64,000 bases of DNA from Alphaproteobacteria bacterium. GTDB taxonomy: Bacteria; Pseudomonadota; Alphaproteobacteria; Rs-D84. The position numbers were made by a program, and so were the translations under genes. Every line of letters begins with the position of its first letter. Position 1 is the stretch's first letter. The DNA lies in contig SUUN01000002.1 in assembly GCA_015062495.1 (NCBI GenBank), positions 71,905 to 135,904 on the forward strand, written 5' to 3'. Shown piece after piece: positions 3,793 to 63,597 of the stretch. The notes beneath the pieces are model-generated. The model saw only the letters and a list, made by a program, of their open reading frames with translations. It was not told the DNA's origin and ran no database searches.

Positions 3793-3805
3793 CGCGCTAT
3801 ACGCA
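3793..3805 (+). repeat. 13-mer CGCGCTATACGCA, site 1 of 6 (plus orientation), 4 nt after the pgsA stop
   Basis: Exact 13-mer. Extended context is TAAAAACGCGCTATACGCACTAAATCCGGC. Confidence 0.6.
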
Positions 3806-3807
3806 CT

Positions 3808-3833
3808 AAATCCGGCATCCGCCGGATTTTTTA
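3808..3833. terminator. rho-independent terminator hairpin AAATCCGGCATCCGCCGGATTTTTT
   Basis: 6-bp GC-rich stem with a 4-nt loop and a T-tract. The identical 21-mer recurs at 40962-40987. Confidence 0.7.
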
Positions 3834-3887
3834 TTTACCCAGAAACACTTCGGTAAATAAAAGTTTAACGAAGTAAAAAATAAAAAC

Positions 3888-3978
3888 GTCATACCCGCGC
3901 AGGCGGGTATCTATTGCCCCGCAGGGACTGCATAAAAATGTCTGCGACGCAGTGGATTCCCGCCTTCGCGGGAATGAC
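3888..3978. repeat. pair of inverted 24-bp palindromic units flanking a 43-bp core
   Basis: Unit 1 is GTCATACCCGCGCAGGCGGGTATC (3888-3911). Unit 2 read on the reverse strand is GTCATTCCCGCGAAGGCGGGAATC (3955-3978). Each unit is itself a hairpin (CCCGC-N4-GCGGG). The A/T differences between units are compensatory within each stem. Confidence 0.5.
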
Positions 3979-4085
3979 GAGTCTTAATATTAATTGCTCT
4001 TTGCGCTTTGCTATTTGCTCTTTGTTTGCCCAACGGGCAAACTTAAATAAACTTTTATTTAACGTGGTATTCCTATCTCATATCT

Positions 4086-4120
4086 CAAAAAAATCCCGCG
4101 GTTGCGGGATTTTGTTTTTC
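4086..4120. terminator. bidirectional terminator AAAAAAATCCCGCGGTTGCGGGATTTTGTTTTT
   Basis: Hairpin with flanking A- and T-tracts, immediately downstream of the stop of the minus-strand gene ending at 4131. Confidence 0.6.
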
Positions 4121-12076: not shown

Positions 12077-13705
12077 TTAGTTCAGCGGCGCGCCCCAGTG
12101 CTGCTGAATACTACGCTCTGCATCCATCGGGCTAACCAGAACCTGCGGCGTCAGGATAACAACCAACACTTCACGACTGGCCGATGTTTCACGCGAACCA
12201 GACAGCGCCATAAAGTCCGGATCACCCAGGCCATAACGCGTATCTGAACCTTTTTGTTTTTCAAATCCCGACACCACCAACATTTGACCTGATTCCATGA
12301 TAACTTCTTGCATGAAACTGCGCTCTTCAACCTCGGGCAATTGCAATGTCACTTCACCAATTGTCTGGGTTGACATACGCAATAGTTCACGCACCGACAT
12401 ACGGAACAGCAACAAAATCTTGCCATTTTCCAAAACATTCGGCAACAGTTGCATTGTGAATCCTGTTTCCAAATCGTCCTGATCAACCGTACTGGATTCA
12501 ACCGTTGTAAAATTACGCGATTCAAAACGCTTGATATAGCCGGTTGTACGTGTATTGCTGACCGGGGCAACACGGTTCGAACGCGTTGTCACACCAACGT
12601 TTGTAACCAACGATACCTTGCCCTGCTTTGCCAATGCTTCAATCAACGCATTGCTGCCCGCCGCACCTGACAGTGAACCATTCATAATCTGATCTTGGGT
12701 ATACGCCCCCTCTACAAGTGACGATCCCTCCATATGCGTTGCACCCGTCAATGCCGATACAGTATTAGACAACACAGCGATATTCATAGAACTGGCCTCG
12801 GTCGATGCCAAATTGTTCTTTGGATTTGCGACAATATTCAATCCAGATGTTGAATTAATCGCCGCCGCCAAATTCAAACCAAACGCAGAATCGTTTGAAA
12901 TCGTAACTTGCAAAACCTTAACATCAATTGTAATCAATTGACTCAAACGCTTGTTCTGACGTTCAATATATTCACCAACACGCGCCAAAATCGATGGCGA
13001 CGCGGTAACTGTAATTGTCCCTAAACTGCGCGACACTGTAAAGTCTGCATTATCTGCCTTGCCAATAATGGATTCGATTGCATTTTCAACTTCGTCCCAT
13101 TCTTTTAAAGTAGATTCCAGCGACACTTCATTTGAATTATCGGTCGACACAGATGTTTGATATGCAACCTCAGTCCCCAGGGCATACAAGGTAAATGTTT
13201 TTGTTTCTGTTTCATAAAAGACGATTGAATTTTTATCATAATACCACAACAAATCCAAATCTGTTGCGACCTGACTTAACAATCCGGACAATTTACCAGT
13301 ATATGCCACATTAACCAATTTCTTTAATTTATCAGACGATACCTGGCCATCAATTTTAACTGGGATACCAGTAATTGAATAAATATCATTAGCCAGCACC
13401 TGTAACGACACAGGTTCATTTAACAAGATAGTCACCCCCGTATCCGTTTCAAACTTAGACGGCAGGTTATTGCGATGTTCCAACACCATGGACTTGTTTC
13501 CCAACCAAACCCCTTCGGACATAGAAACTGTATCACCACTGGCAACCTTGGCGCGTGGATTTTTCGCCATTTCAAACGCATCATATGCGTTAATAAAATC
13601 CTGATCCACAGATGCTGCAACCTTGGCCGATTCGCGTTTTGCACATCCCGTTGCCGTCGCCAACACAACACTGCACAGAATTAAAAATTTTAATGACTTT
13701 CTCAT
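12077..13705 (-). CDS. secretin-family outer-membrane lipoprotein (type IVb pilus / T2SS-type secretin)
   Basis: 542 aa. Lipoprotein signal (LATATGC). C-terminal secretin signature GLGDPDFMALSG...EVLVVILTPQVL, analogous to the IPxLG...ELLVFITP motif. Confidence 0.7.
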   Translation of the reverse strand: MRKSLKFLILCSVVLATATGCAKRESAKVAASVDQDFINAYDAFEMAKNPRAKVASGDTVSMSEGVWLGNKSMVLEHRNNLPSKFETDTGVTILLNEPVSLQVLANDIYSITGIPVKIDGQVSSDKLKKLVNVAYTGKLSGLLSQVATDLDLLWYYDKNSIVFYETETKTFTLYALGTEVAYQTSVSTDNSNEVSLESTLKEWDEVENAIESIIGKADNADFTVSRSLGTITVTASPSILARVGEYIERQNKRLSQLITIDVKVLQVTISNDSAFGLNLAAAINSTSGLNIVANPKNNLASTEASSMNIAVLSNTVSALTGATHMEGSSLVEGAYTQDQIMNGSLSGAAGSNALIEALAKQGKVSLVTNVGVTTRSNRVAPVSNTRTTGYIKRFESRNFTTVESSTVDQDDLETGFTMQLLPNVLENGKILLLFRMSVRELLRMSTQTIGEVTLQLPEVEERSFMQEVIMESGQMLVVSGFEKQKGSDTRYGLGDPDFMALSGSRETSASREVLVVILTPQVLVSPMDAERSIQQHWGAPLN

Positions 13706-13737
13706 AATTATTCTCCTACGCCATCTGTCTGTGATAC

Positions 13738-14664
13738 TTATTCATCATCTGTTGAAATTACCAACACTCTATTACCCTTATAGAATTTTGCATATGGGAT
13801 TGGTGTCGCACGTCCAAAATTACGCACCAAAGCAGACGCCACATCAACAAAACGTCCCTTGAATACGGCACTGGCCTCAATCGGATATTCGCGCGGCGTT
13901 GTCCAAACTAAATCCCAACCTTCTTTATCGCACCAGGACTGCAAAACCTCGCGCAGGGTTTGACCATTTGCAACAACCCATGAACGAACCTGGTCTGTTA
14001 AATTAACTGGTGCTTCGGCATCTGCAGAAACATCCACCGCAATTTCAGTTTCTTCTTCAACAACCTCAACATCTTGTTCCACGCTTTCAACCTTCATACC
14101 ATTACGAACTGCAAACGCCTCATATCCATCGGCATATTTACCACAGTTCTTGCGTCCACTGCGCGACACAGCCAAAACATTTCCACCATCATCTTCTAAA
14201 ACCTCGCGATGCAACAGTGCCATCTCTGCCCCGTTACATTCGTCGTCAAAGCCAACCGGAATCTGTGTCCCGTGCAACAAATTCGCCCCACCGGACCAAC
14301 CTGTAAATTCACCACGCGCCCCCAGGTTAAAATTATTTTCAACCACTAAATCCGCACCAATCTTGGACACAATACGAATATTATCATCCTGCTTGGTCTT
14401 AGAACACGCACCACCTTCGCAGGAAATCTCTACATCGGCATCAGAACCCGCGATCGGCCACGCAGGCACACTTGCCGGCATTGCATAGTTTTCAACCATA
14501 TCCATTTGCATGGTATCAACCTGTTCATACGTTCCACCATCTGCGACAACATCTTGTTCATAGAACACCTCAGACGTTACGACCTGGGGCAAAGAATCCG
14601 CGGCAAAGCAATAGCCCGCCGCCGTTGCAAACATTGCAATAATCAAAATCTTGCGGAACATCAA
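13738..14664 (-). CDS. TcpQ/PilL-like protein (putative secretin-associated pilotin/assembly factor)
   Basis: 308 aa with signal peptide. C-terminal ~75 aa (QTLREVLQSWCDKEGWDLVWTTPREYPIEASAVFKGRFVDVASALVRNFG...YKGNRVLVIS) resembles the TcpQ / IncI1 PilL C-terminal domain. Immediately upstream of the secretin and co-oriented with it. Confidence 0.4.
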   Translation of the reverse strand: MMFRKILIIAMFATAAGYCFAADSLPQVVTSEVFYEQDVVADGGTYEQVDTMQMDMVENYAMPASVPAWPIAGSDADVEISCEGGACSKTKQDDNIRIVSKIGADLVVENNFNLGARGEFTGWSGGANLLHGTQIPVGFDDECNGAEMALLHREVLEDDGGNVLAVSRSGRKNCGKYADGYEAFAVRNGMKVESVEQDVEVVEEETEIAVDVSADAEAPVNLTDQVRSWVVANGQTLREVLQSWCDKEGWDLVWTTPREYPIEASAVFKGRFVDVASALVRNFGRATPIPYAKFYKGNRVLVISTDDE

Positions 14665-14844
14665 AACCTTCCTTTCCTTGAATAATCTTCCTTAATTAAT
14701 AATTATTATAACAATTTGCCCGAATCTGTGCAAGACCTAAAACACACATAAATCAACGAAAAAAAATAATTGCGCATATAAATCGCACGAATCGACAAAA
14801 GATGTTATACTGTCCCCAAAGAACCAGACATTTCAGGGGACAAC

Positions 14845-15391: not shown

Positions 15392-16720
15392 ATGGCAAAA
15401 TTGTCTGAAAATCTTATCCGTGAAATATCGGCCAAACGTAATGAACCCGATTGGCTATTACAATGGCGTCTTGACGCATATAACGCATGGAAAGATATGA
15501 CCGAACCCCATTGGGCCGACATTGAATACAGCCCCATTGATTACGACAGTTTAAATTATTATAACGAGCCAGGCGAAATCGATAATTCTGACTTAGAATC
15601 CGTGTATGATAAAATGGGCCTGCCCGAAAATGAAAAACGCGCCCTGTTGGGAATGGCAACCGACACTGTAATCGACAGTCGTTCCGTCCACACATCATAC
15701 ACAGCCGAACTAGAAAAATTAGGGATAATATTTCTACCTTTCTCGGACGCAGTTATCAAACATCCCGACCTCGTAAAAAAATACCTGGGCACGGTCGTAC
15801 CTGCATCTGACAACTTTTTTGCAGCACTAAATGCCGCTGTATTTTCAGACGGCACATTTGTATACATTCCACCCAACACAAAATGCCCGATTGACCTGGC
15901 CAGTTATTTTAGAATAGAAACCGCAAAAATCGGACAATTTGAACGCACGCTTATCATTGCAGATGCCGGTGCCGAATTAACATATATGGAAGGCTGCAGC
16001 GCCCCCCGCCGCCCAAACCACCAACTGCACAGTGGCGTCGTTGAAATAATTGCCATGGATAACGCAACCATCAAATACGCAACCGTCCAAAATTGGTTTG
16101 CCGGCGACTTTGATGGCACGAAAAACAACGGTGGCATTTTAAACTTTGTAACCAAGCGTGGAATTTGCCACGACAACGCAAAACTACTCTGGACCCAGAT
16201 GGAGGTTGGCAGCGCCCTAACCTGGAAATACCCATCAACAATTTTGCGCGGAAACAATGCGTACAGCGATTTTTATTCATTATCAATTACACGTGGTGCT
16301 CAAATGGCCGACACCGGCACAAAAATGATACACATTGGCGACAATTCAATATCAAATATTGTCTCATATGGCATCGCACTGGATGCATCCACCCAGACAT
16401 TTCGCAGCCTGGTATCTTTTACCGGAAAAAACTGCACCAATGCATCCAAGTGTGACAGCCGCATTATCGGCAATCGCGCCACTGCAAACACACTGCCACG
16501 AATTATCCACGGCGGACAACACAACTCACAATCGCACGAGGCCACAACCGGCACCATCGACGCCGCCACCCTAAACTATCTGAACATGGCCGGCATCGAA
16601 ACCGACGCTGCAATCGCACTGATAATTGGCGCCGCCGCAACACCGGTATTATCACGTCTGCCGATGGAATTTTTGGTTGAATCAAAACAATTAATACAAA
16701 TGGCAATATCCAGGGATTAA
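15392..16720 (+). CDS. sufB: Fe-S cluster assembly protein SufB
   Basis: SufB/SufD-family beta-helix protein about 440 aa, directly upstream of sufC. Start re-picked at MAKLSENLIR. Confidence 0.8.
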   Translation: MAKLSENLIREISAKRNEPDWLLQWRLDAYNAWKDMTEPHWADIEYSPIDYDSLNYYNEPGEIDNSDLESVYDKMGLPENEKRALLGMATDTVIDSRSVHTSYTAELEKLGIIFLPFSDAVIKHPDLVKKYLGTVVPASDNFFAALNAAVFSDGTFVYIPPNTKCPIDLASYFRIETAKIGQFERTLIIADAGAELTYMEGCSAPRRPNHQLHSGVVEIIAMDNATIKYATVQNWFAGDFDGTKNNGGILNFVTKRGICHDNAKLLWTQMEVGSALTWKYPSTILRGNNAYSDFYSLSITRGAQMADTGTKMIHIGDNSISNIVSYGIALDASTQTFRSLVSFTGKNCTNASKCDSRIIGNRATANTLPRIIHGGQHNSQSHEATTGTIDAATLNYLNMAGIETDAAIALIIGAAATPVLSRLPMEFLVESKQLIQMAISRD

Positions 16721-18350: not shown

Positions 18351-18363
18351 CGCGCTATACGCA
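18351..18363 (+). repeat. 13-mer CGCGCTATACGCA, site 2 of 6, 4 nt after the stop at 18346
   Basis: Context is TAAAAAACGCGCTATACGCACGATTTATTG. Confidence 0.6.
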
Positions 18364-19439: not shown

Positions 19440-19442
19440 AAC

Positions 19443-19455
19443 GCGCCATACGCAT
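19443..19455 (+). repeat. 13-mer variant CGCGCCATACGCA (1 mismatch), site 3 of 6, 4 nt after the stop at 19439
   Basis: Context is TAAAACGCGCCATACGCATAAAAATCGGGC. Confidence 0.5.
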
Positions 19456-42146: not shown

Positions 42147-42455
42147 CTACCTGACCCAAAACATATCTTGTAAACTTAAATCTATCCAATCTGGATTTAT
42201 ACTTTCAATCAAACTTAATTTATATTTTCTTGACTGCGACTTGATATGCTTTTCACGTTCAATAGCATCATTTACATATTGAAACTCTTCCCAATATCCC
42301 AACTTATCACAACCATATCGTGCCGAAAAAGAATCTGGATTTATCTTATTTTTGTGTTCCCAAACACGTCTTGTAACATCATCCGTCATACCAGTGTACA
42401 ACGTACCATTTCTGCGATTAAACATAATATAAACATAGAATTTATATTCTTTCAT
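42147..42455 (-). CDS. GIY-YIG nuclease-superfamily small protein (UPF0213-like)
   Basis: About 102 aa from MKEYKFYVYIMFNRRNGTLYTGMTDDVTRRVWEHK (GIY...YIG-type motif with R and E). The track start at 42515 would run into the upstream repeat. Confidence 0.7.
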   Translation of the reverse strand: MKEYKFYVYIMFNRRNGTLYTGMTDDVTRRVWEHKNKINPDSFSARYGCDKLGYWEEFQYVNDAIEREKHIKSQSRKYKLSLIESINPDWIDLSLQDMFWVR

Positions 42456-42587
42456 TTTGCTTCTATTTACTGGATTGCCGCGGTCGTTAACACTCCCTCG
42501 CAATGACAAAGACACTTAATATTCTAGAACCCTAAAAACTCTTGTCATTGCGAGCAAACGCCAGTTTGTGTGGCAATCCAGTCTTAT
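42455..42587. repeat. direct repeat, copy 2 (~130 bp), immediately 5' of the GIY-YIG start
   Basis: TTTTGCTTCTATTTACTGGATTG ... TCTAGAACCCTAAAAACTCTTGTCATTGCGAGCAAACGCCAGTTTGTGTGGCAATCCAGTCTTAT. About 90% identical to copy 1 in the conserved blocks. Confidence 0.75.
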
Positions 42588-45574: not shown

Positions 45575-46271
45575 CCCAAAAACGCAGTCCATCCATCAAC
45601 CCGGGCCGCACCTGTTGAACCAACCGCATTGCCTGCTCTATACGCATGAAATTCGGGCCAAATGCGAAATGCAAGTTAAATTTATTTTCCGTCCCCCATG
45701 CATTTAACATCCCGTACAACCGTCCAACAAAATCAGATTTATTCCCCGTATCATGCGCAAACGCAAATATCACAGACGACGCATTTATTTTGCGCAGATT
45801 TGCAAAAACATTTCCCCAGTCGAACGGCCCGATTTCACTGATATCCAATCCAATTGATAAATCCTTGTTAAAGAACAAATCATCCCGCACAAAATGCGTT
45901 TGTTCGACCAAGTCACCCAATCCACCCACATTCAAAAAAATCTGCGCACCATTTGCACCATGACGCAGACACGCATTAATCCGTACTGTAACATCTGAAA
46001 TCTGTTCTTCTGTGATTTTATCATTTTCCATATAGAACCGGGTCATAATCTTTACAGACGTTTTTTCCAACCACGGCCAAACAGTCTGAATCATATTTGG
46101 CGCAACTGAAACCTCTGACAAATTATGCGAATTTGCAAAATGCACAGCATCGGCCAAATCTGTGGCATCCATATCTGCCCCACACCACAGTGCCGCATTT
46201 TTACCAACCAAATCAAAAACAGCATTTTTATCAATCATAACACTTTTTACTTTATCACAAATATGATACAA
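45564..46271 (-). CDS. hypothetical protein
   Basis: 235 aa with no signal peptide and no confident motif. Divergent from the downstream four-gene operon. Confidence 0.45.
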   Translation of the reverse strand: MYHICDKVKSVMIDKNAVFDLVGKNAALWCGADMDATDLADAVHFANSHNLSEVSVAPNMIQTVWPWLEKTSVKIMTRFYMENDKITEEQISDVTVRINACLRHGANGAQIFLNVGGLGDLVEQTHFVRDDLFFNKDLSIGLDISEIGPFDWGNVFANLRKINASSVIFAFAHDTGNKSDFVGRLYGMLNAWGTENKFNLHFAFGPNFMRIEQAMRLVQQVRPGLMDGLRFWVSF

Positions 46272-46282: not shown

Positions 46283-47164
46283 ATGAAGGACAGACTGGAC
46301 AACTTTTTACTTGCAATTCTGTGGTTGTTGGCATCAACCCTGGGCGCATGCTTTTGGTTCAATATCCGATTCGGATTTAATATATTTTCGTCCCAACACT
46401 GGCATCACCTTGCCTATATGCAGGCCGCCCAAAACCCCGTCAGTCCAATGTTTTACATATCGACGGTTATAACAGTATTCGTTGTGATATTTGGTCTGTA
46501 TCTGATTATTCGTCCGCGTTTCAGACGATTTAAAATGCCAATACGTCAAACAACAATACCATCGCCACAACAACCCGCACAACCAATCCCCGCGAACGTC
46601 CCAACCCCCAGTGTCACGCCCGCACCCGCGCAGCCGCAAAACGCATCAACTATTCCCGAACAAATGTTGACACGTCCACCACGACTAAACATTGCGGTCA
46701 CACCACAATTATTCAGTGCCCCCCCACCGCAACAGGTTGCCACACCACAAAACGACTGGTCTGAAATACGCGACATATTTGAATCCGCTGGATATACATT
46801 CAAGGGCACGCCCCGTATTGGCACAATAACATCTGCACCCATTGCCATCGGCACAGGCGAAGTTTTATGGCTTGGCGCTATCGGTGTACCGACATCTGCC
46901 CTGGGCGCGGCCATTGATACACTTAACCAAATATTTTCAGATACACTGGATGACATAATAATAAACGTAAATGGCTTTGTTATTGATGCGCCCGACGCGG
47001 CCGCCCCAACCACCCCGGGCATACTAACATTTGACACACCCGCATCCCTGCGTCAATATATGTCTGAACATACAAACCCACCACTGGCCGAAGACGACAT
47101 CGAAAACTTTGATGCATTTTCCGCCTATATATCAACCGTAATTGATTACATTGGGAAAATTTGA
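46283..47164 (+). CDS. hypothetical Pro/Gln-rich membrane-anchored protein (operon gene 1)
   Basis: 293 aa. Two N-terminal transmembrane helices, a PQQPAQPIPANVPTPSVTPAPAQPQ low-complexity linker and a C-terminal globular region. Confidence 0.5.
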   Translation: MKDRLDNFLLAILWLLASTLGACFWFNIRFGFNIFSSQHWHHLAYMQAAQNPVSPMFYISTVITVFVVIFGLYLIIRPRFRRFKMPIRQTTIPSPQQPAQPIPANVPTPSVTPAPAQPQNASTIPEQMLTRPPRLNIAVTPQLFSAPPPQQVATPQNDWSEIRDIFESAGYTFKGTPRIGTITSAPIAIGTGEVLWLGAIGVPTSALGAAIDTLNQIFSDTLDDIIINVNGFVIDAPDAAAPTTPGILTFDTPASLRQYMSEHTNPPLAEDDIENFDAFSAYISTVIDYIGKI

Positions 47165-47667
47165 TGGAACTAAATGCCGGCACTGCCGAAAAATTAATAT
47201 CAGATATGGGCATGTCAGACCTGCCCCTGACCCAGGTTCATCCGACCCCCACCATTGTTGCGCCCGATTGGTTTTCGCGATACAAAAAATTGTGTCACGA
47301 ATTTATGGCATCATTAACAGATTCTGCCGAAACATTGGCGTTTATGAATTTGACCCAAGACGAATTTATGAACATAATTATGGGGCGCGACCTGCCCCAG
47401 AATATATCCATTCGGTTTCGCATACCGTTGGTATGGGGTGGCAAACTGGAAATTGATAATTTATTTATGTGTTGGACTTTTCCGCATTCCTACAACATGG
47501 ATCGATTTATTATTGCCCAGTCTGGCGCACAAACAATATGGATGCCGAACCCCGCAAAAAAGATTTATCTGCCTGCACACACGGCGGGTGGCGGTGACGG
47601 CGGCAACGCAACCGAAGACAGACTGGCCCAGATTGGCGCACAAATTGCGGCCGATCGTGATATGTAA
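47161..47667 (+). CDS. hypothetical protein (operon gene 2)
   Basis: 168 aa. ATGA overlap with gene 1. Confidence 0.45.
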   Translation: MMELNAGTAEKLISDMGMSDLPLTQVHPTPTIVAPDWFSRYKKLCHEFMASLTDSAETLAFMNLTQDEFMNIIMGRDLPQNISIRFRIPLVWGGKLEIDNLFMCWTFPHSYNMDRFIIAQSGAQTIWMPNPAKKIYLPAHTAGGGDGGNATEDRLAQIGAQIAADRDM

Positions 47668-47686
47668 AGCAAGACGGTGATAAAAA

Positions 47687-48121
47687 ATGACAACAGACGA
47701 ATTTTTATCATATATAAAATCGCGCGGGGCGCACCTGGCGGATGCCGTATCACCAAATCAAATTGCGCTGACAAACACTGCACTGCAACAACGTCGTCGC
47801 GCCATGTTGCCACAATATATGACCGAACTATATACCAAAACCGGTGGCATTATCTTGGGCAACGGTTATATATTTGGCCCAAAAGAAATCCCCCAGGGCC
47901 TGCGTTTTCCCGTCCCAACAATAACCAAAATTAACGAAGACGTATCCAACATTCCCCAAACCATCGGCAAAACTATATTTGGTCGCAACGATTTATTTTG
48001 GTTTGCATTTGATGCATTTGGTGTTTGCTATATGCTGGATAATTTAACACTTGCACCATTACGCAAATATGACGATCCACACCGCGCACTAATCGATTGT
48101 TTAATCGCAGGAAAAATATAA
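47687..48121 (+). CDS. hypothetical protein (operon gene 3)
   Basis: 144 aa, 20-nt gap after gene 2. Confidence 0.45.
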   Translation: MTTDEFLSYIKSRGAHLADAVSPNQIALTNTALQQRRRAMLPQYMTELYTKTGGIILGNGYIFGPKEIPQGLRFPVPTITKINEDVSNIPQTIGKTIFGRNDLFWFAFDAFGVCYMLDNLTLAPLRKYDDPHRALIDCLIAGKI

Positions 48122-48124
48122 ACA

Positions 48125-48343
48125 ATGAAAAAAATATCTGTATCCTTGTCCGGTCATCAAACCAGCATCACCCTGGAACGCGAATTTATTGACGCCCTGC
48201 ATGCATTGGCAGCACGCGCCGGCAAACCAATTGCACAAATAATAAATGAAATCGATTGCGCACGCGCACCCGACACCAACCTGTCGTCTGCGGTACGCGT
48301 ATGGGTACTAAATCAAATGATATTACGCATTGGTACGAATTAA
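48125..48343 (+). CDS. ribbon-helix-helix DNA-binding protein (PF13467/COG4321-like)
   Basis: 72 aa. KKISVSLSGHQTSITLEREFIDAL...IDCARAPDTNLSSAVRVWVL matches the RHH_4 family consensus (...SxxIxGHrTSisLE..Fw.aL...A...g.s...L...ID..R...NLSSAiRl.VL). Confidence 0.65.
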   Translation: MKKISVSLSGHQTSITLEREFIDALHALAARAGKPIAQIINEIDCARAPDTNLSSAVRVWVLNQMILRIGTN

Positions 48344-48367: not shown

Positions 48368-51088
48368 TTATTCATTATCCGGGGGATATATCAAACAACT
48401 GGTATAATTATTATATCCAAATGCGCCTGATTGTGTACATTCTATTTTTGCCTTTTTACACATATTTGCACAACGCTTAAAACCAGGCGATTTATCTTCT
48501 GTACCAAAATCACATGTGGCATCAACATAGGTATTAAATTTCCCATCCTTGTTTTTCATAACCGTATAAACCTTAATATCTTCACGCCATGTTCCGTGCG
48601 CATCATTACACGCACTTCGTGCCTTGGACAAATATTCTGAATATTTTCCACGTGTTGCAGACTGATAAATCGTTCCTTCCACTGCAGTTTGATCAAACCA
48701 CCAATCCGATTCCAACGGTCGCCACACAGTTTGTCCAGACGCCACAGATTCTACATCTGTATCTGCGAAACAATCCAATTTCATTTCCACATTTGGACAT
48801 GGCAGAGTATTATTTTCGCATCCGCCACCACGCCGCCTTGATACAAGTACGTCAACCTGAATATTCGCTGGCTTTTGTTTTGCGACAAAATAACTTTCCA
48901 ATAATTTCTGTTTAGCAAAGGCTATGTCAAACTCTTTATCAAAATCCTTGTAATGTGGAGAAACTAATTCGACTTCAAATTTACATACGCGCCCTGTTAT
49001 TTGCGACCACATTTCATCAATCTTTGCCTTGGCTACAGATGTCAATCCGTTATCACTGAAAAAATCTGCTTCTGCAATAATAACCCCATCTTGGTTTGAT
49101 GTTACCGCACCGACATTATTTAACACATCCTTGATTGCCGTATTATCCGGTATTATTTGATTGGGATTCACCATCCCCTGCACCTGCGATTCTGCTGATT
49201 GCGATTGTATATTACCAACGACGTTTGACACAGACTCCTCAGAATCTGATTCTACAACAGGTTCTGTAACAGAATTTTTTAACACAATATTTGTATGTGC
49301 ATTTTCATAATCTTTCTTGTCATATTTATTTTTACCTGAATTAATCGCCAGGTTACCAATCAATGACCCTGCCGCTCCAACAACCGCAGTTATTGCTCCT
49401 GTTTTCTTTTTTTCCGCAGTCTCATCTTTTTGTTCTTGCCACATCTTGGCGTCCTGGCTATTTGGATCAGTCAACGCCCGCGCCAACGATGCATATGCAC
49501 CACCTGTTTTCCCAATCGCTACATCATCATACAATCCAGATGTTGCCGCATTCAAAATCGGTTCAGACTCAATCCCAGGTCGCATCCCCAATGCTTCTTT
49601 GCGCACCTTTAAATCATTTGCCAGCGCAACATATTCTGCATACAGTGCAATCAAGTCATTACCACCCGGCAATTCAACATCAACATCACCACCACGCACA
49701 TTTTTGCCATTACCATAACTGCATGTAAACGTGGCCAGATATGCCCGCATTGCATTTTCCGCATCTGCATACGCATCTTGTTCCGCCGCACCTGATGCCA
49801 ACATCATACCGCCAATCCCAGTTGCACCAATACCCGCTGCCCCCAACAGTTTATTTGCATCTGATTGTTCCCTGTCTTTGGCGGATTTTGCACTATCTTT
49901 TAATTTATCAATATTGTTTTGTGATTCTTGTTGCGCTTGTAAACTATTCACCTGCGGATTTTCACCCGGGACAGCAACCACGTCATCTACAGCTGTTTCG
50001 TCATCACTAACAACGGTTGTATCCTGAACATTCGTGGGCGATGTCACACCATCGTCCGTCGTACTGGCACTGTCCCCATCTTCAACTGGCGCGGCAACCA
50101 CAGCTGTATCGGTCACGGTTTCTTGTGTTGGTGTCGACGTATTTTCCGCATCAGACTGCGCGTTGTCCTCTGTCACTGGCGCAACACATGTCAGGTCTGT
50201 TTTTTCCCCATCTATAATAGTTAACTTATATTCTGCATCCATTTTTTTTACACTTTGACAATAACTGTCCGCGACACACCACCCCTGGGACACCCCCGCA
50301 GAACTCACAACCAGATACGTCCCCGCCTTGCACTTTGTAGCCACACATTTTAGCCCAGAATTATATTTTCCCGCTGTTGCGAATTGTGGCAAATCGTTTG
50401 CGGCACAATTATCACCCGGCCCAATTGTACGCACACAACTTCTTTTATCATCCGACGGTCTATAATTCTGTTTACACTCAGAAATCGAGTTGACCCACAC
50501 CATGCGGTTTGGATTTTCCTTGTATGTACATGTTTTTGTACACGAAGCCGCGTTGGAATCAGTTATCACATTTGGCGCACATTCTTGATTTTCCAAGACT
50601 GTCCCCTCAGGCGAATCGCCACATTTTCTTTCCTGACATTTACCATCTGCAAAAAATCTATTACCGTCACAACTAGCCATCAGACACCCTCTGGGCCACG
50701 CACCATCTTCAACAAAATTCCCACCTTGAACCCTGCATCTCTGCTCTGCCCCATCTTGGTACACACAATACCGCGCGCCACTAACACTTAATGTTGTTAT
50801 TTGACTTTTCTCACACCAATTTGTTTGCTGTTTTTGCCACTCATCCGGCCAACCTTTAACACATTTATAATTATCGCCATATAATGTTTGCAACTCTGCC
50901 CCATCCGCAAATGAAAAAGTTCCTTTTCTATACACCGGATTACATTCATAACTACTACCGTTATTCAAATAAAAGAATGATTTATCATCCGATGAACTAC
51001 TGGCTGCATTCACCTGTCGCCATGGTGCCGCATCACCATATGCAGCATCTAAAATCAGACAAAAAAACAACACAAACAAACAGCGCAT
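48368..51088 (-). CDS. large secreted cysteine-rich modular protein (Cys-rich N-domain, acidic T/D/V-rich linker, glycine-zipper segments, Cys-containing C-domain)
   Basis: About 906 aa from MRCLFVLFFCLILDAAYG (track start 51136 runs into the leader hairpin). About 45 Cys in the first 330 aa. Linker TDTAVVAAPVEDGDSASTTDDGVTSPTNVQDTTVVSDDETAVDDVVAV. Gly-zipper segments GAAGIGATGIGGMMLASGAA and GAITAVVGAAGSLIGNLAI. Shares a KFNT motif with the 4131/5791 C-terminal domain. Confidence 0.7.
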   Translation of the reverse strand: MRCLFVLFFCLILDAAYGDAAPWRQVNAASSSSDDKSFFYLNNGSSYECNPVYRKGTFSFADGAELQTLYGDNYKCVKGWPDEWQKQQTNWCEKSQITTLSVSGARYCVYQDGAEQRCRVQGGNFVEDGAWPRGCLMASCDGNRFFADGKCQERKCGDSPEGTVLENQECAPNVITDSNAASCTKTCTYKENPNRMVWVNSISECKQNYRPSDDKRSCVRTIGPGDNCAANDLPQFATAGKYNSGLKCVATKCKAGTYLVVSSAGVSQGWCVADSYCQSVKKMDAEYKLTIIDGEKTDLTCVAPVTEDNAQSDAENTSTPTQETVTDTAVVAAPVEDGDSASTTDDGVTSPTNVQDTTVVSDDETAVDDVVAVPGENPQVNSLQAQQESQNNIDKLKDSAKSAKDREQSDANKLLGAAGIGATGIGGMMLASGAAEQDAYADAENAMRAYLATFTCSYGNGKNVRGGDVDVELPGGNDLIALYAEYVALANDLKVRKEALGMRPGIESEPILNAATSGLYDDVAIGKTGGAYASLARALTDPNSQDAKMWQEQKDETAEKKKTGAITAVVGAAGSLIGNLAINSGKNKYDKKDYENAHTNIVLKNSVTEPVVESDSEESVSNVVGNIQSQSAESQVQGMVNPNQIIPDNTAIKDVLNNVGAVTSNQDGVIIAEADFFSDNGLTSVAKAKIDEMWSQITGRVCKFEVELVSPHYKDFDKEFDIAFAKQKLLESYFVAKQKPANIQVDVLVSRRRGGGCENNTLPCPNVEMKLDCFADTDVESVASGQTVWRPLESDWWFDQTAVEGTIYQSATRGKYSEYLSKARSACNDAHGTWREDIKVYTVMKNKDGKFNTYVDATCDFGTEDKSPGFKRCANMCKKAKIECTQSGAFGYNNYTSCLIYPPDNE

Positions 51089-51106
51089 TAATCCCCCCGT
51101 CAACAT

Positions 51107-51210
51107 CATAATAAAAAACCACTGAAAAAACATCAAGTGGTTGGAGGTTCGTTACAACTTTTCAGGAAATTGTTCGCTTTATTCAATATATTCAAGCGAC
51201 CTCCAACCCT
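51107..51210 (-). promoter_or_regulatory. conserved structured 5' leader element, copy 2
   Basis: In mRNA orientation the order is: GGGUUGGAGGUCG (51210-51198) pairing with CGAACCUCCAACC (51151-51139) around a ~46-nt loop, then hairpin CCACUUGAUGUUUUUUCAGUGG (51140-51119), then UUUUUUAUUAUG..., then RBS GGGGGGA and AUG at 51088. Stem and hairpin are conserved with copy 1; the loop sequence is different. Confidence 0.55.
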
Positions 51211-51348: not shown

Positions 51349-53343
51349 TTACCTGTATTTGCGCCTACAAAAACCAATCGACACAATTAAAATAATAATC
51401 ATCCATCCATTCAGTCCAATCACACGATACGGTGTAATATGTGCCCCCCATACAAATCCATCCAGCACCCCCGTCGCGCCAATCGGCAATGATGATATGA
51501 TTGCGCCATCCGCCCCAACAAACGCGCTAATGCCCGAATAATTTGCACGAATAATCGGCAACCCTGATTCAATTGCATATCGCCGCACCATATCCAGATG
51601 CTGATATGTGCCCGGCGTATTACCGAACCAATTATCATTTGTAATATTCACAATTGCATGCACATGCCCCGTATTCCCACCTGGCAACAAAGAATCTGAA
51701 AAAATAATTTCATAACAAATCGCAGGCGCAAAAACAAAATCCCCAACCGCAAGCAGTTCTGGTCCACGTCCCGGCATCAAATCAACCGGCGCAGGCAAAA
51801 ATCCCAACGGTCTATACTCGCCAAATGGCACCAGGTGTGACTTGCTATAAATCTTGTTAATATCACCACCGTCGTTCACAACAACCATAGAATTAGACAC
51901 CCCATTCCCGTCAAACGTATTTGTCCCCATAACAACGGGACGTCCAATTATTTTTACAAAATCAAATGTATCATTTGGCACAACAACAAACGGATATGTG
52001 GTTTCCGGGAACACAACCATATCATATACCCCAGGCTGCGTTGCCAAATTCATTAAATTATTCAAATTGGTTTCCGCACGCGCCAACGCTTCGGCCCGAC
52101 TGTGTGTTGCCTTTTGCAATTGGGAATTGGCAGGTTGCACAATACGAACCATTGGCCCTGTTGCATCCGCCCCAACATCTGAATATCGCATATTTTGCGC
52201 ACCAACAAACATTCCACATATGCCCAATAAAAGCATACCAATTAACACCGCCCAACATGCACGACATTTTCTGTCCCGCAAAACTTCAACCAACGCCGCT
52301 ATTACCCCCACAATAACAAACGTTAATCCCAACGCCCCCCACAACGCCATAGAATTTGCCAACATCGGCAATGGCATTGTTATATTTGCAACCGGATTCC
52401 ACGGAAATCCTGTAAACATCCATTCACGCGCCCACAGAACCAACGCCCAAACACAGGCAAACAAAATCGCACGCGCCCCACCCGATATACGCATACGCGC
52501 AATCGCAACGAACGGCCATGAAAATATCAGCGCACCCGCAATCGCCAATCCAACCACACCTGGAATTGTCCAAATTGCAAACTGTTGGGTTAATTCCGGC
52601 ACAACATAAATCGAATGCAGAACCCACCAAAAATTTGCCACGGCATACATCGCCCCAAATGGCGACACACGCAATAACGAACGCCAAAAGCCACCTATAT
52701 TTTCATTACGAACCGTCAACCAGTATGCGCCCATTATTCCAACAATCGTCCACCACCAATGGTAAAATGGTGCGAACCCAAAACTGGCAACCCCACCAAA
52801 CAGTGCGTACAGCGCATATTGCCAAAAACCATTTTCACGAATTTTTAATCGCCGAAAAAACGCAAGCACCCCACCACCTGGGCAGCAACTGGCATCATTA
52901 CACGAAACAGCGACATCATCCGCATATGGATTTTTTATCCCCATTTTTTTCAGCACCTTTATTTCCTTCATCTCCATCAGAATTGCTTCTTCATCTGTCA
53001 TATGATCGTACCCCAACAGATGAAACATACCATGCACAACCATATGCGCCACATGATCATGAAACGATATTTTTGCCTCTTTTGCTTCGCGCATTACTGT
53101 ATCAATGGAAATATAAATATCCCCCAGTAACACATCGTCCCCCAATTCAAACGACAGCACATTTGTCGCCCTGTCTACATTGCGATACGTTTTATTGATT
53201 TCATGAATTTCCGCATCATTGGTCAGTATAATCGACACTTCGGCATTTTTATATTTTGCCCCAACCACAATATTGGCGATTTTTTGAAAGTCAATTTTAT
53301 GACTATCCCAACGTTTATCATGTGCATCAATATATACTTTCAT
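51349..53343 (-). CDS. fusion ORF: endoribonuclease YbeY (N-terminal ~150 aa) joined in-frame to apolipoprotein N-acyltransferase Lnt (C-terminal ~500 aa)
   Basis: N-terminus has the YbeY motif HGMFHLLGYDH. After the linker VAVSCNDASCCPGGG comes a polytopic membrane domain and a nitrilase-like CN-hydrolase domain (ICYEIIFSD) typical of Lnt. No intervening stop codon. The usual ybeY-corC-lnt arrangement lacks corC here. Confidence 0.75.
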   Translation of the reverse strand: MKVYIDAHDKRWDSHKIDFQKIANIVVGAKYKNAEVSIILTNDAEIHEINKTYRNVDRATNVLSFELGDDVLLGDIYISIDTVMREAKEAKISFHDHVAHMVVHGMFHLLGYDHMTDEEAILMEMKEIKVLKKMGIKNPYADDVAVSCNDASCCPGGGVLAFFRRLKIRENGFWQYALYALFGGVASFGFAPFYHWWWTIVGIMGAYWLTVRNENIGGFWRSLLRVSPFGAMYAVANFWWVLHSIYVVPELTQQFAIWTIPGVVGLAIAGALIFSWPFVAIARMRISGGARAILFACVWALVLWAREWMFTGFPWNPVANITMPLPMLANSMALWGALGLTFVIVGVIAALVEVLRDRKCRACWAVLIGMLLLGICGMFVGAQNMRYSDVGADATGPMVRIVQPANSQLQKATHSRAEALARAETNLNNLMNLATQPGVYDMVVFPETTYPFVVVPNDTFDFVKIIGRPVVMGTNTFDGNGVSNSMVVVNDGGDINKIYSKSHLVPFGEYRPLGFLPAPVDLMPGRGPELLAVGDFVFAPAICYEIIFSDSLLPGGNTGHVHAIVNITNDNWFGNTPGTYQHLDMVRRYAIESGLPIIRANYSGISAFVGADGAIISSLPIGATGVLDGFVWGAHITPYRVIGLNGWMIIILIVSIGFCRRKYR

Positions 53344-55243: not shown

Positions 55244-55708
55244 TTATTTTTTCCCCAGCCCTGTTTTCTTGGCTATCTTTGAACGCTTGCGCGCATAGGC
55301 CGGCGCAACAAACGGATAATCATCCGGCAACCCCCACTTTTCACGATACTGCTGTGGGGTTAAATCAAAGCGTCGCTTGATATACCGGCGCAGCATCACA
55401 TGCCACGTCCCATCTTCCAGACATTGAATCTTGTCTGGTCGAACAGAATCCTCGATTTGTTGTGGTGTAACGGACGTTCCGCGTAAAATCTCGCGCGCAT
55501 TTTTTACTGCCATCTCCATCGTCAGTTTTGGATTCGCATTAATTGCCGCCGCCGCCAAATTTGCAACCGCCAAAGTGAACTCAGAATTTTTATTTACCAA
55601 CTTGCCAATTCCTTTATAATTTAATAATATAATTATACCACAAATGAACCATAAATAAAAGCCAAGTAAAATGACACGACCACTTGCCGATTTAATGCGT
55701 CCCAACAC
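55244..55708 (-). CDS. mucR: MucR/Ros-family transcriptional regulator (variant with non-canonical zinc ligands); true start probably downstream of the track start
   Basis: C-terminal IQCLEDGTWHVMLRRYIKRRFDLTPQQYREKWGLPDDYPFVAPAYARKRSKIAKKTGLG matches the Ros/MucR DNA-binding domain (..CLECG..HL..HH..TPeeYRekWgLp.dYPmvApnYa..Rs..Ak..GLG), but the second Cys and both His are replaced. The first ~30 codons overlap the divergent rarA start and are likely not translated. Confidence 0.6.
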   Translation of the reverse strand: MLGRIKSASGRVILLGFYLWFICGIIILLNYKGIGKLVNKNSEFTLAVANLAAAAINANPKLTMEMAVKNAREILRGTSVTPQQIEDSVRPDKIQCLEDGTWHVMLRRYIKRRFDLTPQQYREKWGLPDDYPFVAPAYARKRSKIAKKTGLGKK

Positions 55709-60295: not shown

Positions 60296-60351
60296 AACAA
60301 TAACTCCTTTTGTCAAAAATTATAACACAAATCCGCCCCATTACAAAGAAC

Positions 60352-60380
60352 AAAAATCCCCGCAATCACGCGGGGACAAC
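60352..60380. terminator. terminator (minus strand) after rfbB: hairpin TCCCCGC-AATCA-GCGGGGA with a T-tract on the minus strand
   Basis: Minus strand reads AAGTTGTCCCCGCGTGATTGCGGGGATTTTTGTT. Confidence 0.6.
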
Positions 60381-61391
60381 TTACCTGTCCAGATACCATT
60401 TAACCGTCTTGACAATCCCCGTATCAAATGTTTCATTCGCGCGCCACCCCAGTTCCTGTTCCAACTTGGCTGCATCAATTGCATATCTAAAATCATGCCC
60501 CGCGCGATCAGCGACAAATTCAATCTGTGATTCATACTTTTTGCCGTCTGTTCGTGGACGCAATTCATCCAGAATTGAACAGATGGTTTTAACAATCGTA
60601 ATATTATTGCGTTCATTATGCCCACCAACATTGTACGTTTCACCCGCACGCCCATTGTGATAAATCAAATCAATCGCCCGACAATGATCCATCACATACA
60701 GCCAGTCCCGCACATTTTCCCCACGCCCATAAATCGGCAACGGCTTTCCCGCCAGCGCACACGAAATAATATGCGGAATTAATTTTTCATCATGTTGCTT
60801 TGGCCCATAGTTATTTGAACAATTCGATGTTGTTGTATTCAACCCATATGTATGATGATACGCCCGCACCAGGAAATCAGACGATGCCTTGGATGCAGAA
60901 TACGGACTGTTCGGCGCATATGGCGTGTCTTCGCGAAATTCACCTGTTGCCCCCAGCGCACCATAAACTTCATCTGTGGAAATATGATGAAAACGCGCAT
61001 CCGCATACCCTGGCTTAATGCGCCCCGGCGCATCCATCCAATGCCGTCGCGCCGCATCCAGCAAATTAAACGTTCCAATAATATTAGTATTTATAAACGC
61101 GCGCGGGCCCGTGATTGAATTGTCCACATGACTTTCCGCCGCAAAGTGAATCACACCACGCACATCGTTTTCACGGAATAATTTTTCAACCAAATCCGCA
61201 TCACAAATATCCCCCTGAACGAATGAATAGTTCGACATATTTTCGCACGACCGCAGATTTTCTAAATTCCCCGCATATGTCAATTTATCCAGATTGATAA
61301 TTTTATATTCTGGATATTTTTCACAAAAATATGGCACAAAGTTCGAACCGATAAACCCCGCCCCACCTGTAATTAAAATTGTTTTATGCAT
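60381..61391 (-). CDS. rfbB: dTDP-glucose 4,6-dehydratase
   Basis: ILITGGAGFIGSNF Rossmann motif, YxxxK. Start re-picked at MHKTILITGG. Confidence 0.85.
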   Translation of the reverse strand: MHKTILITGGAGFIGSNFVPYFCEKYPEYKIINLDKLTYAGNLENLRSCENMSNYSFVQGDICDADLVEKLFRENDVRGVIHFAAESHVDNSITGPRAFINTNIIGTFNLLDAARRHWMDAPGRIKPGYADARFHHISTDEVYGALGATGEFREDTPYAPNSPYSASKASSDFLVRAYHHTYGLNTTTSNCSNNYGPKQHDEKLIPHIISCALAGKPLPIYGRGENVRDWLYVMDHCRAIDLIYHNGRAGETYNVGGHNERNNITIVKTICSILDELRPRTDGKKYESQIEFVADRAGHDFRYAIDAAKLEQELGWRANETFDTGIVKTVKWYLDR

Positions 61392-62194
61392 TTTTCCAGC
61401 CCCTTTTTCCAATGTTCAATTTCAACACCAAATATACTTTTAATCTTGTCTTTATCCAGCACACTATAAAACGGCCGCACCGCACGCGTTGAATATTGGT
61501 GGGATTTTATCGGATTTACCCGACACCCCAGTCCCGACATTTCCATAATTTCACAGGCGAAATCATACCACGAACACACGCCTTCGTTTGTAAAGTGATA
61601 TATACCGGAATTTTCACGCGTCATCTGTGGAATAATTTTTACAATCGCATCCGCCAAATCCCCCGCATACGTCGGACTGCCAATCTGGTCTGCGACAACA
61701 TTGATTGAATCTTTTTCTGCACCCAATCGCCGCATAGTCTTTACAAAGTTATTCCCATGCGTGCTGTACAGCCACGCCGTACGAATAACAACCACCACAT
61801 CCGTATTTTCCAACGCGGCCAATTCCCCTGCCCGCTTGGTCCGCCCATATACCGACACCGGATTTGTTTCATCATCTGGCGCATATGGACAATGCCCCAT
61901 GCCATCAAAAACATAGTCTGTGGAAACATGAATAATTTTTGCCCCCGTCTGGGCCAGGTTTCGCACCCCATCAACATTGATTTTTGTCGCCAATTCCACA
62001 TCGTCTTCGGCCGCATCTACGGCGGTGTACGCCGCGCAGTTTATGATTACATCAATATTATTTTCGTGCACAAAATTACGCACCGCCACCGCATCTGTGA
62101 TATCCAGCGCATCGCGCCCCACCGCAATTGCATCTGGCAAACGTGCAACTAATTCACGCCCCAATTGCCCATTACAGCCCGTAATCAGTTGCAT
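61373..62194 (-). CDS. rfbD: dTDP-4-dehydrorhamnose reductase
   Basis: 273 aa. RmlD family (MQLITGCNGQLG...). Confidence 0.8.
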   Translation of the reverse strand: MQLITGCNGQLGRELVARLPDAIAVGRDALDITDAVAVRNFVHENNIDVIINCAAYTAVDAAEDDVELATKINVDGVRNLAQTGAKIIHVSTDYVFDGMGHCPYAPDDETNPVSVYGRTKRAGELAALENTDVVVVIRTAWLYSTHGNNFVKTMRRLGAEKDSINVVADQIGSPTYAGDLADAIVKIIPQMTRENSGIYHFTNEGVCSWYDFACEIMEMSGLGCRVNPIKSHQYSTRAVRPFYSVLDKDKIKSIFGVEIEHWKKGLEKCIKQF

Positions 62195-62723
62195 CTTTTA
62201 ATACCCCATGCTTTCTGTCTTTGTCCGACACAATGATTTTGTCCGCCGGTATTTTCCAGTCAATTCCAATATCCGGGTCATCAAACCGCACGCCAAATTC
62301 CGCACCCGGCGCATACAGATTATCACACTTATACGCAAATACCGCCACATCTGACAGCACCGAAAACCCATGTAAAAACCCACGCGGTATAAACAATTGC
62401 CGTTTGTTTTCGGCACTCAGTTCCACCGCCACATGCCGCCCAAATGTCGGCGAACCGGGCCGAATATCGACCGCCACATCCAGAACCACCCCCTGTAACA
62501 CACGCACTAATTTTGCCTGGGCATGCACGCCCGTCTGACAATGCAGACCACGCACAACCCCATACGATGACATGGATTGATTATCCTGGACAAACACATT
62601 TGGAATACCGTTTGCCACAAATTCATCCGCGTTATATGTTTCCATAAAATATCCACGTGCATCCGCAAACACATGCGGTTCAACAATAACAACGCCATCA
62701 ATTTCAGTCTTAATAAATTTCAT
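62172..62723 (-). CDS. rfbC: dTDP-4-dehydrorhamnose 3,5-epimerase
   Basis: RmlC cupin (MKFIKTEIDGVVIVEP...RGLHCQ). Start re-picked at ATG 62723. Confidence 0.8.
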   Translation of the reverse strand: MKFIKTEIDGVVIVEPHVFADARGYFMETYNADEFVANGIPNVFVQDNQSMSSYGVVRGLHCQTGVHAQAKLVRVLQGVVLDVAVDIRPGSPTFGRHVAVELSAENKRQLFIPRGFLHGFSVLSDVAVFAYKCDNLYAPGAEFGVRFDDPDIGIDWKIPADKIIVSDKDRKHGVLKDATDYGL

Positions 62724-63597
62724 GCTTTTCCCTATATACTTTTTCCAGATAATCCCGATATATTCCGGGCCGCAATGCATCTATTAATGCACGCATTTGC
62801 GCATCATCAATAAATCCCTGGGCATACGCGATTTCTTCGATGCACGCAATTTTCAACCCCTGACGCTTTTCAATAATCTGAACAAACTGTCCCGATTCCA
62901 TCAGGCTGTCTGGCGTCCCCGCATCCAACCACGCATTACCCCGTCGCATTGGCACAACCGACATTCGCCCCTGGGACAGATAAATATTATTCAAATCTGT
63001 AATCTCGTATTCGCCACGTGCCGACGGATTCAGCCCACGCGCATATTCCACAACATCACTGGGATAAAAATACAGCCCCACCGACGCATAGTTTGATTTT
63101 GGATTTTTTGGTTTTTCTTCGATTGAAATGGCATTAAAATTTTCATCAAATTCCACCACACCGAATCGTTCTGGGTCGGACACATGATACGCAAAAATCG
63201 TTGCGCATCTGCCTGCATTTTCCCGCGCTATACGCACAAAATCCGGCAATTGTCCCCCCATATAGAATATATTATCCCCCAATATCAAACACACATCATC
63301 CGCGCCGATAAATTCCGCGCCAATGGTGAATGCCTGGGCAATACCGCGCGGCGCATCCTGCACCGCATATTGAATATTCATCCCCAGTTGCGCCCCATCA
63401 TGAAATAATCGTTCAATATTCGGCGTGTCATTTGGCGTTGAAATAATCAACACATCGAGAATTCCAAACTGCATCAACGTTGACAACGGATAATAAATCA
63501 TCGGCTTGTCATATACCGGCAACAACTGTTTAGATATCGTCTGTGTCATTGGATACAGGCGCGACCCACTGCCCCCAGCCAGAATAATTCCCTTCAT
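62710..63597 (-). CDS. rfbA: glucose-1-phosphate thymidylyltransferase
   Basis: MKGIILAGGSGSRLYP nucleotidyltransferase motif. 295 aa. Confidence 0.9.
   Translation of the reverse strand: MKGIILAGGSGSRLYPMTQTISKQLLPVYDKPMIYYPLSTLMQFGILDVLIISTPNDTPNIERLFHDGAQLGMNIQYAVQDAPRGIAQAFTIGAEFIGADDVCLILGDNIFYMGGQLPDFVRIARENAGRCATIFAYHVSDPERFGVVEFDENFNAISIEEKPKNPKSNYASVGLYFYPSDVVEYARGLNPSARGEYEITDLNNIYLSQGRMSVVPMRRGNAWLDAGTPDSLMESGQFVQIIEKRQGLKIACIEEIAYAQGFIDDAQMRALIDALRPGIYRDYLEKVYREKHEIY
63224..63236 (+). repeat. 13-mer CGCGCTATACGCA, site 6 of 6, inside rfbA (minus-strand gene; encodes LPDFVRIARE)
   Basis: Context is TCCCGCGCTATACGCACAAAATCCGGCAAT. Confidence 0.6.

Follow-up and report, generated by a model that had tools for sequence, protein, structure and literature searches.

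A clustered, position-conserved 13-bp motif in gut Alphaproteobacteria as a candidate set of recognition sites for one DNA-binding protein

Short DNA sites dispersed over a plasmid or over part of a chromosome are known from several systems. KorB, a ParB-family protein with a double function in the IncP plasmid RK2/RP4, global repression and partition, has 12 dispersed 13-bp operators (OB), which are spread over some 60 kb in promoters, far from promoters or within genes and occur in either orientation. The canonical parS site (TGTTNCACGTGAAACA) is a 16-bp palindrome found near the origin and parAB; parS clusters consist of a few to about 20 copies in a limited region, often lie in genes and keep their positions between species. 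The 13-bp palindrome matS has a frequency of about one site in 35 kb, and its protein MatP occurs in some Gammaproteobacteria only. DNA uptake sequences (DUS) and uptake signal sequences (USS) are present in hundreds to thousands of copies genome-wide; in Neisseria and Haemophilus, their density is about 1 per kb. The FtsK-orienting polar sequences (KOPS) and Chi are short (5-8 nt) and frequent throughout the genome, and their strand bias follows replication. Here, a motif, CGCGCTATACGCA, is compared with these systems; it recurs in a 64,000-nt stretch of DNA (the window) from an Alphaproteobacteria bacterium of the Rs-D84 lineage (assembly GCA_015062495.1, contig SUUN01000002.1, positions 71,905 to 135,904). 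An alphaproteobacterial case, the terminus-binding protein ZapT of Caulobacter, occupies about 10 sites, mostly within open reading frames (ORFs), and no consensus motif was found for it (PMC7188993).

The copies of CGCGCTATACGCA occur non-randomly, at conserved positions, in mixed orientation and in one neighbourhood, and they are selected as DNA. We tentatively favour the view that they form the site set of one protein with a regional role in organisation or segregation, possibly also in local repression. The copies would be recognition sites of a single putative sequence-specific DNA-binding protein, about a dozen of them being held at fixed positions, in either orientation, over about 60 kb of the chromosome in an uncultured clade of Alphaproteobacteria from the gut. 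What would matter is the occupancy of the region by this putative protein, and the sites could then be a landmark of the region, used in organising or segregating the chromosome and perhaps also in the local control of transcription. A regional role is favoured because most copies lie mid-gene or in terminator regions. That the sites are protein-bound, and what binding would achieve, we infer.

A first-pass annotation of the window had listed five exact copies of CGCGCTATACGCA, at 3793, 18351, 23013, 39654 and 63224, and all five are present there on the plus strand. The over-representation it had claimed is real: at up to two mismatches, 15 occurrences were counted against 1.33 expected, and none of 100 shuffles reached 15. 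The word is the top-repeated 12-mer and 13-mer of the window and, with an added C, its top-repeated 14-mer too, and no sub-word of 6-9 nt was enriched beyond the contribution of the full-length copies. A weight matrix of 35 columns including flanks, trained on the nine best sites, was used with a cut-off score of at least 12 to scan 82 kb, made up of the window plus 8.3 kb to the left (L128) and 9.6 kb to the right (L126) of neighbouring contig sequence. This yielded 12 sites, against 0.02 expected from shuffles, with a span of 61 kb and a local density of about 0.15 per kb. Seven are on the plus strand and five on the minus strand; eight are intragenic and four intergenic. The sites are as follows:

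2272-2284, minus strand: CGCGCTGTACGCA, one mismatch, inside uvrC; reverse complement read V-R-T-A-R; score 34.8
2441-2453, minus strand: CGCGCTATGCGCA, one mismatch, inside uvrC; score 33.8
3793-3805, plus strand: exact copy in a convergent intergenic region, after the stop of a pgsA-like gene (TAA + AAA)
16258-16270, minus strand: ATCGCTGTACGCA, a weaker member, inside sufB; score 21.6
18351-18363, plus strand: exact copy between a 312-aa gene (4 A's past its stop) and an AI-2E-transporter gene
19442-19454, plus strand: CGCGCCATACGCA, one mismatch, located between the stop of the AI-2E-transporter gene and the bidirectional terminator that this gene shares with ruvX
23013-23025, plus strand: exact copy inside gatB, read R-A-R-Y-T-H (ARYTHE)
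27533-27545, minus strand: CGCGCTGTACGCA, in the promoter region between two divergent genes, one for a weakly SodC-like lipoprotein and one for a DUF5856 protein
39654-39666, plus strand: exact copy inside the minus-strand sufS; reverse complement GTG CGT ATA GCG CG, read V-R-I-A-R
45634-45646, plus strand: TGCTCTATACGCA, two mismatches, the 3' flank (tgaaattcgggc) matching as well; inside a 224/235-aa gene; score 17.6
52804-52816, minus strand: TGCGCTGTACGCA, two mismatches, inside a ybeY-lnt fusion gene; score 15.8
63224-63236, plus strand: exact copy inside the minus-strand rmlA; reverse complement read V-R-I-A-R

The gene contexts and readings given earlier for gatB (ARYTHE) and for the sufS-like gene and rmlA (VRIAR) are as described. 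The one-mismatch copy reported at 19443 exists (CGCGCCATACGCA), starting at 19442, and the three intergenic sites do follow stop codons, the gap in the window consisting of 2 to 4 A's rather than of a fixed 4 nt. The family has the consensus core CGCGCYRTRCGCA with, as a rule, an A/T run on its 5' side and Y-N-(A/T)4-5-YYGG on its 3' side; core and A/T-rich stretches on either side together amount to about 25 bp. At motif position 7, all seven plus-strand copies of the window carry A and four of the five minus-strand copies carry G (p about 0.01), a split that parallels the A+C-rich versus G+T-rich composition of the strands. A tie between the base and the strand, true in the window, breaks down in relatives: their orthologous sites carry the alternative base on either strand, so that position 7 is simply R, and the split in the window is probably due to mutational bias on a degenerate position.

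When set beside the described systems, the motif resembles the KorB operators in that a 13-bp sequence recurs about 12 times over about 60 kb, genic as well as intergenic and in both orientations. However, OB has perfect palindromic symmetry (TTTAGCSGCTAAA) and belongs to a plasmid that carries korB/incC alongside, whereas the motif is asymmetric and lies in a chromosome among housekeeping genes, with no ParB-like gene in the 82 kb. With parS clusters it shares the concentration of 12 sites within 61 kb and the conservation of their positions across species; unlike parS, it is asymmetric and its sequence is unrelated. Canonical parS itself is not enriched in the window (two weak matches, 0.75 expected). 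The matS/MatP and ZapT systems likewise have region-restricted sites that lie mostly in ORFs and are indifferent to orientation, and matS is also 13 bp long. They differ in that there is no sign of a terminus near the motif sites and no dif-like site in the 82 kb. DnaA-box clustering was sought in the window or the 82 kb, and no enrichment was found.

The positions of the sites were followed in relatives; those from the species-representative genome set are Alphaproteobacteria metagenome-assembled genomes and 'Candidatus Enterousia', several of them gut or faecal, at 78-93 % nucleotide identity. Over 3 to 7 species, 12-13 of the 13 core positions of the intergenic sites are invariant, against 22-37 % of the flank columns. 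The core of site 3793 is invariant at 13/13 positions in L071 and L090 (flank columns, 54/147 or 37 %). Conservation reaches deepest at site 18351, the core of which is invariant at 12/13 positions across seven species versus 29 of 129 flank columns, and which persists in relatives with 36.7 % GC at 70-75 % identity. Sites 3793 and 19442 each lie in a convergent intergenic region between a stop codon with its A-run and a bidirectional terminator (for site 3793, immediately 5' of the hairpin at 3808-3829). In relatives, the terminator hairpins adjoining both sites are swapped for different sequences, and CGCGCTATACGCA stands at the same spot as site 19442 with the hairpin arms differing.

Within genes, the word is retained through codon choice. 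In sufS, the codons GTG CGT ATA GCG CG are kept in L254, L255 and L257, the SufS proteins of which are 88 %, 76 % and 66 % identical, while L256 (68 % protein identity) has one mismatch. ATA, which makes up 21 % of the Ile codons, is kept here, yet neighbouring synonymous positions vary. The copy is degenerate in L266, a VRLAR lineage, and absent from L267 (63 % identity), which has no other site within its 21 kb. The gatB copy is kept in L002, L036 and L161 (80 % identity) and replaced in L200 (75 % identity) via point substitutions; as L200 differs without an indel, this copy was gained or lost by substitutions and not by insertion. Of the two uvrC copies, L071 (81 % identity) retains that at 2272, which is degenerate in L090, and neither retains that at 2441 as such. 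Site 45634 is kept in L254-L257 and L266, and site 52804 is identical in L254; the comparison for site 63224 was limited to same-species contigs. Related forms of site 16258 occur in L157, L144 and L200, a match that may partly reflect protein constraint since the site overlaps the conserved SufB peptide RGNNAYSDFY. The intragenic copies use two recurrent frames, (V/M)R(I/T)AR and NA(H/Y)S, which look like those in which the protein tolerates the word.

On this comparative evidence, selection acts on the motif at the DNA level, as had been proposed; DNA rather than a transcript is indicated because the predicted hairpin is weak and orientation with respect to transcription is mixed. Six 21-kb loci of relatives (126 kb in total) were also picked via SufS, independently of the motif. 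They contain sites at the window positions plus one marginal extra (score 10.5, in L256), and the most distant locus has none. The window species and L254-L257 are motif-positive lineages, and relatives such as L267 (GCA_045651525.1) are motif-negative. Site turnover is low and therefore unlike that of sequences accumulating by molecular drive.

The distribution of the motif beyond the window was examined in two scans. A genome-collection scan with the 14-mer as query was dominated by chance matches, about 4,400 being expected in 596 Gb, and a metagenome scan with AAAACGCGCTRTACGCA mostly returned chance matches to unrelated organisms. DNA of the clade was recognised by its tetranucleotide correlation with the window, for which non-overlapping pieces of the same genome gave 0.91-0.98 and pieces of relatives at least 0.89. 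Clade loci longer than 2.5 kb scored at least 0.92 and three shorter ones 0.82-0.91 (trinucleotides), and all other matches scored at most 0.77. Among the matches listed, clade loci made up 3 of 120 in the genome scan (L036, L071, L090) and 10 of 120 in the metagenome scan (L144, L157, L161, L180, L188, L189, L200, L215, L220 and L235). All 13 are orthologous to window sites between 3.8 and 27.5 kb, and they fall at five positions: 3793, about 11.4 kb, 18351, 19442 and 27533. Three different clade species in the metagenome JAEIGA01 were all matched at the orthologue of 19442. The clade is rich in species, with 853 SufS homologues at E ≤ 1e-80 and 62-95 % identity; given this diversity, a motif present in at least 100 copies per genome should have made clade matches from elsewhere dominate. 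For the ThrRS of a distant relative, homologues were found only at 87-92 % identity, from that same lineage. No site is present in the flanks of the cluster, 10.5 kb on the left and 10.4 kb on the right (P about 0.016 at cluster density), and a scan of the viral collection gave eight single-copy matches in unrelated contigs, which is chance level. We infer from these sequence comparisons that the motif is not abundant genome-wide and forms a local cluster.

This distribution bears on the suggestion of the first-pass annotation that the motif might be an uptake signal of the DUS/USS type, which would be read by a type IV pilus receptor in natural transformation and would accumulate through biased uptake. 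The motif shares several features with Neisseria DUS and Pasteurellaceae USS. These comprise a core of 12-13 nt followed by an A/T-rich tract, copies in both orientations inside and between genes, a few preferred reading frames, and copies that adjoin or even form terminators. The relative L235 (51 % GC) carries two inverted copies, 8 nt apart, at 651-684, and these make up a perfect 19-bp hairpin with a U-run (-32 kcal/mol), a bidirectional terminator between convergent genes; the orthologous place in the window, at about 11.41 kb, is occupied by an unrelated ordinary terminator. Genes that might belong to such a pilus are present in the window as well. A minus-strand gene (1194-1658) encodes a 154-aa protein with a type IV pilin-like N-terminus (G/RSMIEML, Glu at +5, two C-terminal Cys), and a secretin gene and a TcpQ-like gene are located at 12077-14664, also on the minus strand. 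However, the pilin matches score below the family cut-offs, and no pilus assembly ATPase or platform gene is adjacent to either locus. Unlike DUS and USS, the motif consists of about a dozen position-conserved copies in one region. Its copy number is orders of magnitude too low, all the clade matches listed being orthologues of window sites, and even its local density falls short of the figure for Neisseria and Haemophilus given above. No short core is enriched, and the SufS-picked loci show almost no species-specific gains, the sole extra match being marginal. An uptake signal is therefore very unlikely.

The placement of some copies just past stop codons led us to consider an element acting at the RNA level or associated with terminators, such as a small hairpin in the 3' untranslated region, an auxiliary terminator or a processing or protein-binding site. 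Three sites of the window and three of L235 stand in sense orientation after a stop codon and A-run, just 5' of intrinsic terminators, and on the opposite strand the reverse complement with its T-run scores as a small terminator-like hairpin. Although the post-stop copies are all in sense orientation, six of the eight intragenic copies put the reverse complement in the sense strand. The hairpin itself has a stem of 3-5 bp with -2.7 to -4.1 kcal/mol and is not significantly better than shuffled sequence (for the GCG/CGC stem, -2.7 kcal/mol, z about -1.4). The stems are invariant, without covariation, and distant relatives retain the 3' half (TATACGCA) and have lost the 5' arm. An Rfam search gave no match to the motif, only two tRNAs being found. 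The RNA-level explanation is accordingly improbable, and a hairpin or terminator element was rejected in view of the weak stem and the lack of covariation. Three further candidates were set aside. A -10-like promoter (GCTATA) was rejected as there is no conserved -35 and copies occur where a promoter makes no sense; recoding on the post-stop A-run was rejected because the spacing ranges from 2 to 8 A's between species; and the RfaH ops element was dropped, with 7 of 12 positions matching ungapped.

The first-pass annotation had further held that all copies are strictly co-oriented, and had likened them to a motif polar with respect to the replichore, of the kind that guides FtsK (KOPS) or serves in recombination (Chi); fork arrest (Ter) belongs to the same group. 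GC skew in 2-kb bins over the 82 kb is -0.03 to -0.36 on the plus strand in all bins except one (5.7-7.7 kb, +0.16). The plus strand is thus the C-rich one, and the skew, mostly about -0.2 to -0.35, is unusually strong and uniform. Since it is negative throughout, the whole 82 kb was assigned to one replichore. The exact word does lie on one strand of this single replichore, as would suit KOPS, Chi or Ter, the one-mismatch copy at 19442 follows suit, and an ftsK gene with a gamma domain is located about 4 kb past the end of the window. The strict co-orientation fails, however: one-mismatch copies at 2272, 2441 and 27533 are on the minus strand, as are the weight-matrix sites at 16258 and 52804, and the outcome that the annotation had named as refuting, copies on both strands regardless of replichore, was thus largely observed. 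The apparent co-orientation came about because only the exact word had been counted; five exact copies on one strand correspond to p = 0.06 (two-sided). The interleaving of the two orientations, 7:5, inside one replichore argues against the logic of KOPS, Chi and Ter. In contrast to KOPS and Chi, the motif is 13 bp or longer, low in copy number and regional rather than a frequent 5-8-mer abundant genome-wide. In contrast to Ter, its orientations are mixed instead of uniform on each side of a terminus, and the 82 kb contain no skew switch. As relatives moreover carry either variant on either strand, the polar reading is largely refuted and is hardly credible any longer.

The window further contains a 23-kb block (1.7-25 kb, with uvrC, pgsA, gyrB, sufBCD, perM, gatCAB and miaB) in which transcription meets replication, as its direction is inferred, head-on. 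This block contains eight of the 12 sites.

The motif would thus belong to a kind already familiar, that of clustered protein-binding sites, and matches no known site family: for parS, matS, DUS, KOPS and Ter alike, it fails at least one of the defining features tested. A literature search with the motif string brought up no description, the only match being unrelated Vibrio work. As for the alternatives that had been named, a methylation site with a 13-bp asymmetric target would be atypical, and the evidence favours the fallback suggestion of a target for a dedicated DNA-binding protein.

Such a protein might also be an ordinary transcription factor, the sites being operators of a small local regulon, perhaps of oxidative-stress and Fe-S genes, and the targets merely being neighbours. 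With a dozen sites per genome, such a regulon would be of typical size, and 5 of the 12 touch suf or the SodC-like/DUF5856 stress genes. Site 18351, the most deeply conserved, lies 32 nt upstream of the ATG of the AI-2E-transporter gene, and site 27533 falls between the divergent SodC-like lipoprotein and DUF5856 genes, in their promoter region; the DUF5856 product was judged by eye to be Dps-like. At most these two of the 12 sites are promoter-like, however. Eight are mid-gene (two in uvrC, one each in gatB, sufB, sufS, lnt, rmlA and the 224-aa gene) and are kept through codon choice; two sites and the L235 pair are in convergent terminator regions, where there is no promoter; and the weight-matrix scan gave no copy in the intergenic stretch that precedes the suf operon (14665-14844). 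The asymmetry of the site speaks against operators as well. A small regulon is the main rival explanation, though a rather doubtful one.

Site 27533 and its promoter region have features of their own. It belongs to a block of about 50 nt that also contains the inverted repeat GATTCC/GGAATC (GATTCCTAGGGAATC), located beside the site at 27546-27585 when read on the minus strand; repeat and block are conserved in relatives at 73-96 % identity, and the repeat may be a second regulatory site in this promoter region. At the place orthologous to 27533, L220 has the A form of the motif.

Several points weigh against the preferred reading of the sites as a regional set for one DNA-binding protein. The word is asymmetric, its sole symmetry being a GCG-N5-CGC dyad, unlike parS, matS and the KorB operators. 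Sites 18351 and 27533 are at spots expected of ordinary operators. No ParB-like gene or other obvious partner is present in the 82 kb; DNA-binding folds there are limited to those of an RHH_4 protein (48125-48343), a Ros/MucR protein (55244-55708) and a CopG protein, none of them linked to the motif. The distance to origin or terminus is not readable from a skew of constant sign over 82 kb. Lastly, the confinement derives indirectly from the matches listed, in no known order, in two scans rather than from a whole-genome count. Searches of the hypothetical proteins near the sites against Pfam and NCBIfam gave nothing usable as a binder candidate. A bolder version, in which asymmetric, non-parS 13-bp sites, even inside essential genes, would be bound by a putative new protein that organises, segregates or silences about 60 kb, and which would make this a landmark or centromere-like system outside ParB-parS and MatP-matS, must be considered rather unlikely, though not negligible. 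The remaining probability lies with explanations outside those considered here.

The genes around the sites gave rise to some further observations. A 370-kb metagenome contig of the Joint Genome Institute (JGI) contains a stretch identical to the window. Among the long contigs and assemblies with this region are JGI 3300029305 Ga0307249_10000134 (370 kb), ENA ERZ28019339 k141_528586 (466 kb), ENA ERZ28436053 NODE_7 (307 kb) and the assemblies of JAEDOP01, JBGUTP01 and JAFTNY01. The gene that harbours site 52804 (51349-53343, minus strand) is a 664-aa ORF in which the domains of YbeY, an rRNA maturation endonuclease, and Lnt, an apolipoprotein N-acyltransferase, are fused, and this fusion is present in all relatives examined. 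The products of a four-gene operon on the plus strand (46283-48343) are a proline-rich membrane protein of 293 aa, two proteins of 167 and 144 aa and the RHH_4 protein of 72 aa, whose fold is among the few DNA-binding ones around the cluster; the operon is kept in most relatives examined. Gene content varies among strains and species within otherwise syntenic DNA at 48368-51136 (minus strand) and at 41274-42515. A 906/922-aa ORF is missing in L252, a strain at 98.6 % identity, and a GIY-YIG gene and a 134-aa gene are missing in L254-L256; at the spot of the latter two, L257 and L267 have thrS, a SPOR-domain gene and tatA.

In conclusion, the motif is a well-defined orphan cis-element, and its case shows that the counting of exact words can create an apparent strand polarity. 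Should the sites be operators of a small regulon, the finding would be an ordinary one. To our knowledge, no system of this kind other than ParB-parS and the motif-less ZapT has been described from Alphaproteobacteria. The sharpness of the motif and the existence of motif-positive and motif-negative lineages make the system well suited to finding the binder. If the sites do act as a regional landmark, they would represent an undescribed chromosome-organising or dual regulator/partition system in widespread uncultured gut Alphaproteobacteria.

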